A DNA stretch of 57,364 bases, counting the filler, from Dugesia japonica (lineage: Eukaryota): NCBI GenBank assembly GCA_001938525.1. It is 5 parts of 5 records of this genome, joined end to end, with 100 filler letters (N's around TTAATTAATTAA, not from the genome) between each part and the next. Parts side by side here need not be neighbours in the genome. Positions count along the whole stretch, not along the records: positions 30,627 to 41,401 come from MQRL01460425.1; 4 more parts are not named here. The stretch is one strand, 5' to 3'. Shown in pieces: positions 30,851-37,748 of this stretch (its first letter is position 1; the number at the start of each line of letters is the position of its first letter). Made by a program: the position numbers and the translations under genes. A model generated the notes under the pieces. That model did not search any database. It had not been told where the DNA came from and saw nothing but the letters and a program-made list of their open reading frames with translations.

Positions 30851-33800
30851 TCATTTTCCAATCTGATTCCGTAATTGATGCAAATTTTTCTCCAATCTAC
30901 GCAAACGACTTTGGTCTGCTCGCATGTGAAATTTAAGAGATCGAATCTCATTGCGCAATGATTGAAATGAATGACGCAAAGATTTCATTTTACCTCTAGA
31001 AACATGTTTATCCCTAGACTGAGAATCTGTGGTTGATTTATTAACTTGATCATGGTTTTCAGACAGGGTATTCGATTGACAATTTATTTGGACTGTGTGA
31101 AGAACTGATGACGAATTTTGAGTAGGAAGAGCTGGAGGGATCCAGTTATACATACTTAAATTGGATGCAGGTGGGTTTATATCTGTAGATATCGATGATA
31201 TTGTTGTGGGATCAACGCTGCCTCCACCATTTGTCAAATGAGAAGAGACTGTAGTCATGGTTGAATTGGAACCGGTACACATGCCATTATTGGGTTGTTC
31301 TTCATATTGCGCTTTATTAAAGATCGGTGGTTGATTAATTATGAGTCGACTGATATCATTTGTGTTGACCATATTCGCCGTTCCAACAACACCAGGTTTA
31401 ATATTGTTGATAATTTGTGAAGGTTTTTGATTTACTGGAGGAAACGGGTCGATTTTTATTTTATGTTTTGTAATAGGCTTTTTATAATTCGAGCTGTCTT
31501 TGCGCATATAATCTGCACGAACTGCGCGTTCTGCAGCTTCAATATGTTTCCTAACGTAATCTTCTGTGCTGAGTTTTGGCTTTGATTGACAAACAGAGCT
31601 GGTAACAGCAGTAGGAGATGTGGTTACAATTCTTGATTGTGTAACTACAGTCGAAGGTAATTGTGTAATTTGTGTCAAACAAGGGGCTGCTGCTGGTGGT
31701 AGTGGTGGAATTTGAGTGAGATTTATTGGGATGACATGATTGCAATTTTGAGGAACTGAAATACAATTTAAATTTCCGACTTCAGTTGATGGTCGTGATA
31801 CCATCAACTGTTGAGTGGCCAGCAAACCAAGCAAATCAATACCAGTCGGTCGCTTTGTGTCTTGCACAGTTGTATTGACAACATTCAATCCATTGAGACC
31901 AAGATTGGCCACCGCTAGCGATTTGGAGAGGGTTAACAACAAATTAGAATCAAGATGTGCTGGAATGTTGATTAAGGGAGATGAGGATGTTGTTATTGAG
32001 ACATGTTGAGGAACGCTTGGAGTAATCACATTAGTGACAGCATTAATAAAAGACTGATTACACTGTACAGGTGGTGACACACATTCTAATTTAAGATTGG
32101 ACGGTTTCTCAGTTCGTTGCTCCCGAAATTTTACCATAAGTGCCAATTCTTCTTCGGTAAAATCATCCTCCTGGGGTAAGACTGGCGGTATTTCCATTGA
32201 ATTTATACTTCGATTACTACGTTTATCATTGTCGACAGAGATCGCTTCAGAGTCCAGCTGACATCGCTTGGTGTTGACTTCATCCTCAGACTCCTGTAGA
32301 ATATTCTAATGGTACAACATGAATACTGCATTAAAATAACTAATATATGAGCAACTAAACGAAACTAAATGACAATCATAAATTAAAATTTATTTTAAAA
32401 AATTCAAATTATTTTGAATCGTTAAGAAAATTGTGCTACCTTAATCGATTCTACCATAGGGCCATTAATGAGCTAATTAAAACTAGAAATAAAATATAAT
32501 AAAGACTGACATCGTCTTTTTATTTTCAATCAATAATTAATTTAAAAATTTCTCAATATATTCTTATTAATAAGCACACTTAAACTCTTAATTATTTTGA
32601 ATAATATAGAGATCTAAATTAAATAATAATATTGTCAGGAGAGCAACTAGACTTTAATATTATCCATGCAAATTTCACTTAACTACTTAAAAATTTTAGT
32701 AAATTTAAACATAAATAGAGATTTCCACCAGTTTTGTGAAAAATTTATAGAAAATCATTAGTTTTACTTAATTTAAACAAAAATGAGTTTCCGAGGATCG
32801 TGTAATAGTTCTGTATTCATTATATAATATTATATTTATGACGTCATTGACATAGATAATGCGATCAACTATAAATTTATATATCCATTGACGTGCATAA
32901 CGCACTCGGCTAAACCCAATCTGATTAACAGAGGAGTTTAGTACAGAGCTTATATCTATTTACTACTATCAATGAAGGATACAAGTAATTATAAAGATCG
33001 TTATACTAGTATAATTATTATTTATTCTTACATTTTTTACATGTCGAAACCTATGATATTTTCAATTAAAATTAATTATTCAAACTGTCGTTAAGAATTT
33101 AAACAAACGAATCTTGAATTTTAATAGTTAATTAATAATTTGTAATAATCAATAAAAATAATTGTTAAAATTGTGATTATATTACAGTAAAAGTTGTTTA
33201 ACTGAAATAGCAACATATTTTTATTATACGCCGTTAACCAAAAATGAAATGAACAAAACATTTAATCGAGGACTTTTACTGCATATTGTATTGTATATTT
33301 GTCTGTATTAACGGAAATGAAAATCGCCGAATCAGTCAAAAATTTGAACACTGAACAAAGAAACTATATAGATACATTTCCACAGCATTGCAAAAAGTAG
33401 TGATCGCTGATGCCAGCCGGAATATTACATGGGGATAAAGTGTGTAAAATAATTTCTACAATCTGAGATTAAAATTAGAATGATTGTTAAATAATTCACA
33501 ATAATGTCATTGATTTAGTAGTAAATATTCCAAGAATTTTGCCTCGTTTCGATTGTTTGAAAATGCACGTGTTGACATTATTCAATGAAAAGTTTTAATA
33601 GATAATTTGCATATTAAATTTACACCGAATATAGATAAGTTATATATTCAACAATAATCCCAAATATTTTCACTCATTTAATTTTCAATTTCCCATGACA
33701 TAGCTATCGAATTTTCTTTTATAATAGTGATTTTGTAGTTGTATGATTAATTATTAATGAATTATAATGATTGAAATATATTGAATGGAAATGGAATACA

Positions 33801-36800: not shown

Positions 36801-37748
36801 AGATGCAGGTTGAGGGTCGGTATCGATAATCAACTTTGAGCAGATATCGTTTTCTGGTAATTCGTATCGAGTTGTTGAAGATTCTGGCAAAGAAAATACA
36901 GAAAAATAATTCTTATTCAACAAATGCGAGATCATAAAGAAAATAGGAAATCGAATTTTTTTTAATTCAACCCAATAACTTATCAGTGTGTTAATAAGTG
37001 TTTGTATTTTTGTAAGTGTGTCNNNNNNNNNNNNNNNNNATATATATATATATTATAAAAAGAATCGATAATGGATTTTAAAACAAGGCTCGCAGCGACG
37101 TGTTGTTATTAGGCAAATCGCATCACTGTGTATTCAAACTACGATTGTTTGTGTGTTGAATTCAATTTCGACTTAGTATTTGTGTGTATTCATGAGTTGT
37201 GTGCATCGTTTAAGTAAGTATTGATTTTATAAGATGGTAAAAATATCTGAATACATTTATCCAATCGCATTTGAGTATTCCTAATCAATAATTGATTTCT
37301 TTGTCTCAACAAAATAGTAAAATAAAATTAATATTATAATTATAAATATAAATATAAAAAATAATCAATTACCTTGAGATAACTTTGATCCACTTGACGC
37401 ATTTAAAAAAGCTTTGGCGAGTATTTTCTGTTCTAATTCTTTAATTTTTGATTCATATTCTTCAACTGATTTGAAGCTTTTCATTTTTTCTTCCTTTGTT
37501 GACCAAGGAAAAATCGTTGGCATATAATCGACATGACTGGAATCGAGATTCGGTTTACCAGTTGCGAAATGTGAATTGCAAATCCGGGAATTCGATGAAA
37601 CAGTTCCGTATTTGATCCGTTCACCGATTTGATTAAGCCAAAGCTGTTTACGATCACTATTTTGCGGGAGACGATAAAATATTTTCCGTTTTTTACAATT
37701 GACGGACTCGGATTCACAATTGAGAATGCAGCAAAACAAAGTTGGCAT
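30851..37748 (-). CDS. THAP domain + tesmin/LIN-54-type CRC (CXC-hinge-CXC) protein, 7 exons, 999 aa
   Basis: Exons 37748-37373, 36883-36353, 35869-35525, 34711-34626, 34560-34472, 34418-34289, 32293-30851; all introns GT-AG and phase-compatible, total 3000 nt; [35 protein letters not shown]1 [17 protein letters not shown]; hinge [14 protein letters not shown]2 [21 protein letters not shown]. Confidence 0.88.

Follow-up and report, generated by a model that had tools for sequence, protein, structure and literature searches.

What does a protein do that carries a THAP zinc finger and the CRC (CXC-hinge-CXC) domain of LIN54 on one and the same chain, and does it act inside or outside the MuvB complex? 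The question is raised by a gene on the minus strand of a 57,364-nucleotide stretch of Dugesia japonica DNA (the window; five joined parts of assembly GCA_001938525.1). THAP proteins and DREAM are genetically linked in both worms and humans, by mechanisms that have been described as poorly understood (PMC8552245). A sequence-only reading had proposed an intact, lineage-restricted gene for a MuvB subunit with a second DNA-binding specificity. The gene is real; its structure, expression and sequence constraint, its intact DNA-contact residues and its lack of the LIN54 tail are documented below. The assignment to MuvB is a different matter.

Gene structure and coding sequence

The seven exons join into a coding sequence of 3000 nt, specifying 999 amino acids and ending in a single terminal stop, and all six introns have GT/AG ends (Table 1). 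The proposed intact reading frame of seven exons in phase therefore holds. The same is true for the N-terminal THAP domain and the central CXC-hinge-CXC, as both Pfam domains score above their cut-offs and the latter aligns to the LIN54 structure 5FD3. Individual Pfam scans covered exons 1, 2, 3 and 7; exons 2 and 7 yielded no match above cut-off, and none of the four contained a transposase family or a catalytic DDE domain. AT-richness and introns of 53-65 nt suggest a planarian source. With respect to the mobile elements in the window, which had been called decayed, the ORFs are indeed fragmented, but several of the breaks are N gaps.

Table 1. Parts of the THAP-CRC gene of D. japonica (positions along the window).
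Feature	Position	Strand	Remarks
Exon 1, aa 1-125	37373..37748	-	ends in phase-1 GT donor
THAP domain, aa 6-80	37733-37509	-	in exon 1; Pfam PF05485, 44.2 bits (cut-off 23.9, E 3.4e-11)
Conserved helix behind THAP, aa 95-118	exon 1	-	40/43 identical in P0001
Intron 1	36884..37372	-	GT/AG ends; AT repeat 37312-37368, N gap 37023-37039; probably spliced
Exon 2, aa 126-302	36353..36883	-	linker of low complexity, conserved in patches; first Met is aa 253
Exon 3	35525..35869	-	CXC1 35714-35604, hinge 35558-35529; Pfam PF03638 (TCR), 42.3 bits (cut-off 23.5); joints seen
Exon 4, first half of CXC2	34626..34711	-	RNA reads show joints 34711/35525 and 34560/34626
Exon 5, second half of CXC2	34472..34560	-	joints seen in RNA reads
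Exon 6	34289..34418	-	joints 34417/34471 and 32292/34288 seen in RNA reads
Basic cluster, aa 500-504	exon 6	-	candidate nuclear localisation signal (pattern scan)
Exon 7, aa 520-999	30851..32293	-	mostly disordered; X21 depth 25-52; lacks LIN54 C-terminal domain
Helical motif TEEEL-x6-REQR, aa 565-579	32114..32158	-	also in P0048 (trematode)
Isolated predicted helix, aa 762-788	31487..31567	-	pLDDT ~74; no match in P0048
Basic C-terminal coiled coil, aa 951-998	30857..31000	-	heptad score and predicted continuous helix

Transcription and splicing

Expression was followed in four (X20, X21, X24 and X4) of the 24 RNA runs listed for the same species. The joints of introns 2-6 were each present in X21, X24 and X4, and the exon 2-exon 3 joint 36353/35869, one of two junctions that had been put forward for checking, was recovered in 11 reads of X21, 9 reads of X24 and 1 contig of X4. 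The other, 37373/36883, which would connect the THAP exon to exon 2, is missing from the joint table of the four runs. Splicing of the THAP exon to the CXC exons is thus seen from intron 2 onward, whereas the first joint has to be judged differently. The repeat at 37312-37368, 5 nt from the exon-1 donor, was skipped in the mapping and one joint row was dropped at repeats; we infer that the dropped row is the missing one.

The indirect support for splicing at 37373/36883 is strong. In the stranded run X21 every exon is read from the minus strand, with a depth of about 16-17 in exon 1 up to the donor, 12 in exon 2 from the acceptor and 16 in exon 3, and the intron 1 bin 36952-37214 has a depth of 0 in X20, X21 and X4 and of 0.27 in X24. 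The THAP exon is the sole same-strand coding exon with reads upstream of exon 2. Moreover, P0001, a protein of 499 aa from another species with both Pfam THAP and TCR, has the THAP-exon 2 join in phase and at the identical place. It runs out of frame past ~aa 445 and is therefore probably an automatic gene model. Exon 2 itself is conserved over the ~125 codons that precede its first Met: the segment is identical to P0001 in 80 of 125 positions and to P0020, an exon-2 read-through from a third species, in 75 of 121. Given this conservation, translation should start further upstream.

Some features of the reads are less regular. Four contigs of X4 have poly-T loose ends at 37445; this position follows an A-rich stretch and a similar poly-T end lies inside exon 6, which suggests internal priming. 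In A-runs of exon 1, single-base insertions were present in 4 of 21 reads in X21 (37483) and in 4 of 6 reads in X24 (37688), with two starts each, and in no other run, and are read as slippage. Exon 7 is covered 2-4 times as deeply as the 5' exons, which fits a 3' bias, although an additional shorter transcript may contribute.

The THAP and CRC domains

The THAP domain shows the complete signature (C6/C7, C11, P28, W37, C57, H60, F61, P77 and a YMPTIF box), including all eight of the signature residues named in PMC3479173. It thus has the N-terminal C2CH arrangement, the invariant P, W, F and P and the AVPTIF-type box by which THAP domains are recognised, and these domains bind DNA mainly in the major groove (PMC3479173). 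The HCF-1 binding motif [D/E]HxY does not occur in the model; it is also missing in three human THAP proteins (PMC13631171). Around exon 1 no terminal inverted repeats were found, just AT-rich chance repeats in 36900-39200. In the ESM Atlas, aa 1-90 retrieved generic THAP clusters alone, with no donor family among them, and aa 1-445 retrieved nothing usable. Folding of exon 1 without an alignment gave a pLDDT of 45.

The presence of two CXC domains and a hinge follows from the Pfam TCR match in exon 3, the two TCR stretches in P0001 and the alignment to 5FD3 (E 1e-25 for P0001). It has been established that the LIN54 CRC reads a CHR-type TTYRAA site via the minor groove (PMC4974476). The K(L/N)Y motifs are kept, with both minor-groove tyrosines (Y536 and Y610 in 5FD3 numbering), and so are the contact side chains S530, K534, R574, N600, S604 and N609, when counted along the 5FD3 alignment (contacts from PMC4974476). 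In the same alignment N526 has become Thr, and K602/R603, which make backbone contacts only (PMC4974476), have become Leu/Lys. The hinge had been called divergent, and rightly so: the usual Pro is replaced by Ser while the DNA-contact Arg is retained, and none of the other hinges among 146 matches reads like it, even though 15 of these lack the usual Pro.

Sequence constraint and rarity

Between the model and P0001, identity amounts to 81/82 in THAP, 40/43 in the helix behind it, 151/220 in the linker and 91/92 in the CRC. The THAP exon is therefore constrained as tightly as the CRC and, judged from this comparison, is not a recent insertion. Variants among the RNA reads agree with strong constraint. 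Of the 83 found, 40 were shown, and 26 of these 40 were synonymous against an expectation of 22% (p 4e-9). For exon 7 this held for 18 of the 30 listed (p 1.6e-5), and none of the 40 fell in exon 1.

With P0001 as query, HMMER gave 5444 matches in a set of 1.84 billion representatives; the best 150 matches were examined (cut-off 93.8 bits). Since a two-domain protein sums both scores, it is expected among these 150, unless its cluster representative is unfused. When Pfam was run on all 165 other proteins from these best 150 matches and one further search, none contained both THAP and CRC. Likewise, P0001 was the sole match with the fusion among the 138 candidates of a search with the THAP exon among longer proteins, and none of 590 pattern matches in a metagenome scan with exon 1 was confirmed. 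Considering its expression, its constraint and the 0 of 165 other proteins with both domains, the reading of an intact, lineage-restricted THAP+CRC gene is supported.

The literature was covered at the level of titles and abstract starts, and at this level no paper on a THAP-CRC protein was found; supplementary tables of planarian transcription factors may contain the gene under a different name. No second flatworm LIN54 was found at this level either, within a thin coverage of subscription papers, and the word tesmin does not occur in the available text of a planarian chromatin paper (PMC10558129). The gene thus represents a conserved and apparently unreported combination of two known DNA-binding families. 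The architecture already sits, unnamed, in the public protein record P0001 and may appear in InterPro.

The C-terminal region

In LIN54, tesmin and Mip120 a C-terminal helix-coil-helix domain contacts LIN9/MuvB (PMC9424243, PMC8386835, PMC5550918). A profile of this LIN9-binding tail made from 51 matches gave -2.4 bits on the tail of the model, which is the level of shuffled sequences. After rebuilding from 49 rows, with the flatworm rows left out, the profile recognised all five canonical flatworm-clade proteins tested (52-69 bits), whereas it scored below 0 bits on the model and on P0048, an unnamed CRC protein of the trematode Calicophoron daubneyi (CAL8072561.1) that has neither THAP nor the LIN54 tail. 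In a profile-to-sequence comparison of the LIN54 tail with six segments of the model the probability was <= 0.4%. The Rb-binding motif LxCxE, a feature of the plant DREAM-type TCX5/6 (PMC8500230), does not occur in the model either. Plant TCX5-named proteins likewise go unrecognised by the profile of the animal tail, with scores of no more than 6.7 bits, yet TCX5/6 of Arabidopsis are DREAM subunits that enter by a different route (PMC8500230). A protein without the animal tail may therefore have another way in. As far as can be judged from the sequence, MuvB membership of the THAP-CRC protein is unlikely.

What the C-terminus does contain is a heptad repeat at aa ~955-997, with a score that none of 200 shuffles reached, and the prediction for the last 48 residues is a single unbroken helix (pLDDT 85-93). 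The C-terminal coiled coil noted before thus stands as a prediction, and in the predicted model it differs from the LIN54 tail in being one long helix instead of a helix-coil-helix. Exon 7 encodes 480 residues, and 401 of them have a pLDDT below 50. When the last 70 residues were modelled as a homodimer the score was 0.04, which gives no verdict, and none of 45 candidates was matched by the last 100 residues used as query. P0048 likewise has a C-terminal heptad repeat (0/200 shuffles reach its score), and the two coiled coils show no sequence alignment with each other.

A second point of resemblance is the motif TEEEL-x6-REQR, which was first picked by eye and for which P0048 ranked first of 189 proteins (0/2000 shuffles). 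It was also the best masked BLASTP match among 133 tails (E 0.14), and a helix is predicted at this position with low confidence. The unmasked alignment of the whole tails of the model and P0048 was not significant (76/1000 shuffles).

Relatives and origin

CRC trees were made from three hand-picked subsets of 40, 40 and 41 rows over 113 columns. The model and P0048 came out as sisters at 97/91 and, after inclusion of six further long branches, at 95/88, with a flatworm clade (98/99) enclosing the pair. By these trees the source animal is itself a flatworm. Without P0048 the model was an unplaced long branch among animals, outside the canonical flatworm clade, and in a quick, unfinished tree of 138 rows it stood beside two unrelated long rows. 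Given that both the model and P0048 are long branches, the pairing on 113 columns is good, not final. P0085/P0188 had been considered as a member of the P0048 group and was rejected, as the trees place it with another canonical subgroup.

This topology suggests a duplication of LIN54 in flatworms and loss of the tail, followed by gain of the THAP exon in the present lineage. Alternatively, THAP may have been lost in trematodes; with a single THAP-less relative found, gain here and loss there are indistinguishable. The coiled coil of the model was likely inherited from the CRC parent, as the THAP-less P0048 has one. The proposed MuvB subunit with a second specificity is not borne out: the LIN9-binding tail is undetectable, there is no LxCxE, and the CRC, unlike that of canonical LIN54, pairs with a probably separate flatworm paralogue that also lacks the tail.

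Proposed function and alternatives

We lean, with slightly better than even confidence, towards a stand-alone transcription factor with two sequence-specific grips on DNA, descended from a LIN54 duplicate in which loss of the MuvB anchor was followed by gain of THAP. A fast-evolving flatworm duplicate of LIN54 would first have lost the LIN9-binding C-terminal domain. In place of that domain would have come a long disordered tail, bearing a short helical motif and ending in a coiled coil; P0048 would represent this state without THAP. An exon encoding THAP plus the helix behind it would then have been spliced onto the front of the duplicate and fixed, in a lineage that is probably the planarians. 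In the resulting protein the tandem CXC pair would bind like that of LIN54, from the minor groove and at a CHR-like TTYRAA site. THAP would read another site through the major groove, and with ~270 aa of linker between the domains the two sites could lie apart. The coiled coil may dimerise the protein as in THAP1/THAP11, a role proposed for human THAP proteins (PMC13631171). Nuclear import of tesmin requires LIN9 (PMC8386835); the present protein could enter the nucleus without LIN9, by means of the basic cluster at aa 500-504. Its targets would be some of the CHR-type promoters (cell-cycle or germline), where it would work alongside MuvB or counter to it and not as a part of it. A precedent exists in Arabidopsis, in which just two of eight CRC proteins co-purified with DREAM (PMC8500230).

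The main competing explanation, which we consider unlikely, is that the protein is the LIN54 subunit of the animal's MuvB, or of a tMAC-like paralogous complex, with LIN9 bound via the coiled coil or the TEEEL helix and THAP as a second specificity. The CRC is intact and belongs with the animal sequences in the trees, a lin9 gene exists in S. mediterranea (PMC4494696), and the plant TCX5-type proteins enter DREAM without the animal tail (PMC8500230). Nevertheless, that tail is absent here although it is readily detected in canonical flatworm LIN54s (52-69 bits), LxCxE is lacking, the C-terminus is predicted as one long helix and not as helix-coil-helix, and the model groups with the probably separate paralogue P0048. 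We regard it as rather improbable that the protein cooperates with DREAM from outside, as LIN-36/LIN-15B do, using the CRC to reach CHR promoters and THAP mainly for contacts with Rb/DREAM or with chromatin factors. The near-invariance of THAP and the helix behind it between two species (81/82 and 40/43) is compatible with such contacts, but it fits DNA binding equally well, and all DNA-binding signature residues are retained.

A further alternative is that there is no fusion: the THAP exon would give a short transcript of its own, and exon 2 would be the start of the CRC gene, for instance by spliced-leader addition, which is known in flatworms. The unlisted joint 37373/36883, the poly-T loose ends at 37445 (4 contigs of X4) and the one-base insertions in the A-runs of exon 1 (X21 and X24) are what one would cite in favour. 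Yet the ~125 exon-2 codons before the first Met are conserved in P0001, the exon start is conserved in P0020 as well, and P0001 has the same in-phase join. Exons 1-3 are read from the same strand at similar X21 depth (17, 12 and 16, with 0 in mid-intron), the ends at 37445 look like internal priming and the insertions are missing in other runs. On this balance we consider separate transcripts very improbable.

To return to the stand-alone factor, a more far-reaching version is tentative and, in our estimate, less likely than not: a second flatworm LIN54 lineage would have left MuvB and would have given rise here to a single-chain THAP-CRC factor on composite promoters with a THAP site and a CHR. 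This factor would switch a block of genes of the cell cycle or of stem cells, either without regard to MuvB or as its competitor, with the helical motif recruiting a cofactor. If true, a single chain would hard-wire the THAP/DREAM partnership that C. elegans runs as separate proteins. A THAP domain fused to a CHR-reading domain and near-identical in two species may serve as a 'Rosetta stone' for the THAP-DREAM link. The missing tail points to a second flatworm LIN54 lineage that is also present in a parasitic trematode and of which we found no description. The gene is directly testable, as many public RNA runs exist for this animal group and RNAi is routine in planarians.

Comparison with known systems

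The model resembles LIN54, tesmin (MTL5) and Mip120 (PF03638; 5FD3) in the CXC-hinge-CXC arrangement, both tyrosines, nearly all contact side chains and the low-complexity flanks. It differs from them in the N-terminal THAP, the divergent hinge, the terminal coiled coil, the lack of the LIN9-binding helix-coil-helix and the central position of the CRC, which is followed by 530 residues. With THAP1, THAP11, LIN-36 and LIN-15B (PF05485) it shares a THAP domain with full signature at the extreme N-terminus, and with most human THAP proteins a C-terminal coiled coil, predicted in the model (PMC13631171). Compared to these THAP factors it adds a CRC and lacks [D/E]HxY, and its coiled coil likely stems from the CRC parent. 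The THAP transposases (P element/THAP9; ISL2EU) are the likely ultimate source of THAP (PMC8552245, PMC4482050); the model differs in having neither a catalytic domain nor, on either side of exon 1, terminal inverted repeats. The Arabidopsis TSO1/SOL1/SOL2-type proteins also carry a CRC and were not recovered in DREAM purifications (PMC8500230); they belong to a plant clade and have no THAP. Another counterpart is P0048. While it lacks THAP and has no significant similarity elsewhere, it is the sister in the CRC trees and has in common with the model the absence of the LIN54 tail, the TEEEL-x6-REQR motif, the terminal heptad repeat and the Ser for Pro in the hinge.

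Transcription around the THAP-CRC gene

Upstream of the THAP exon, a spliced transcript was observed on the strand opposite to the THAP-CRC gene. In the RNA reads its start lies upstream of the THAP ATG at a distance of a few hundred bases. It carries a GT-AG joint (38156/38210) that is present in three RNA runs of the same species label (X20, X21 and X24); together with the THAP-CRC gene it forms a head-to-head promoter. Comparison of the RNA reads with the window showed that those departing at 38241 run on into sequence that is absent from the window.

At the 5' end of the gene itself, a single contig of RNA run X4 links the A of the ATG to a position upstream, with unknown letters in between and non-canonical ends; either strains differ here in their 5' UTR, or the link has some other cause. 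Within intron 6, one interval reached a depth of 3.0 in the stranded run X21, on the strand of the THAP-CRC gene and with flanking bins near zero, and possibly represents a minor exon.

Features in the window beside the coding exons of the THAP-CRC gene
Feature	Position	Strand	Content
Fragmented ORF clusters (n=2)	550-15455	opposite orientations	
C2H2 fingers	15006-15455		
Retroelement-like stretch	17343-20491	+	integrase core PF00665; pieces matching PF24664
Intron 6 signal	33270-33532	-	
5' contig link	37748/37833		
Divergent transcript	38004-38500	+	

Stretches resembling mobile elements

The retroelement-like stretch is interrupted by N gaps and stops, and its PF24664 pieces match a viral-type fusion glycoprotein family (Pfam). 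Both ORF clusters resemble Polinton-type polymerase regions; among the pieces tested the C2H2 fingers were the only Pfam match, the remaining ones giving none over the cut-off.

Other CRC and THAP proteins

Among the best 150 of 5444 matches listed for P0001, the THAP+CRC orthologue of another species, the closest THAP relative was P0019, an unnamed protein of 971 aa with seven THAP domains in tandem (Pfam). In the CRC tree, a further fast-evolving CRC protein, represented by P0085 and P0188, both apparently truncated records, falls within the flatworm clade and joins a different canonical subgroup (support 93/79). Finally, the CRC protein P0138 (266 aa) carries an N-terminal Tc3 transposase HTH domain (PF01498, 65.6 bits; Pfam), and is either a faulty gene model or a second example of a transposon DNA-binding domain next to a CRC.
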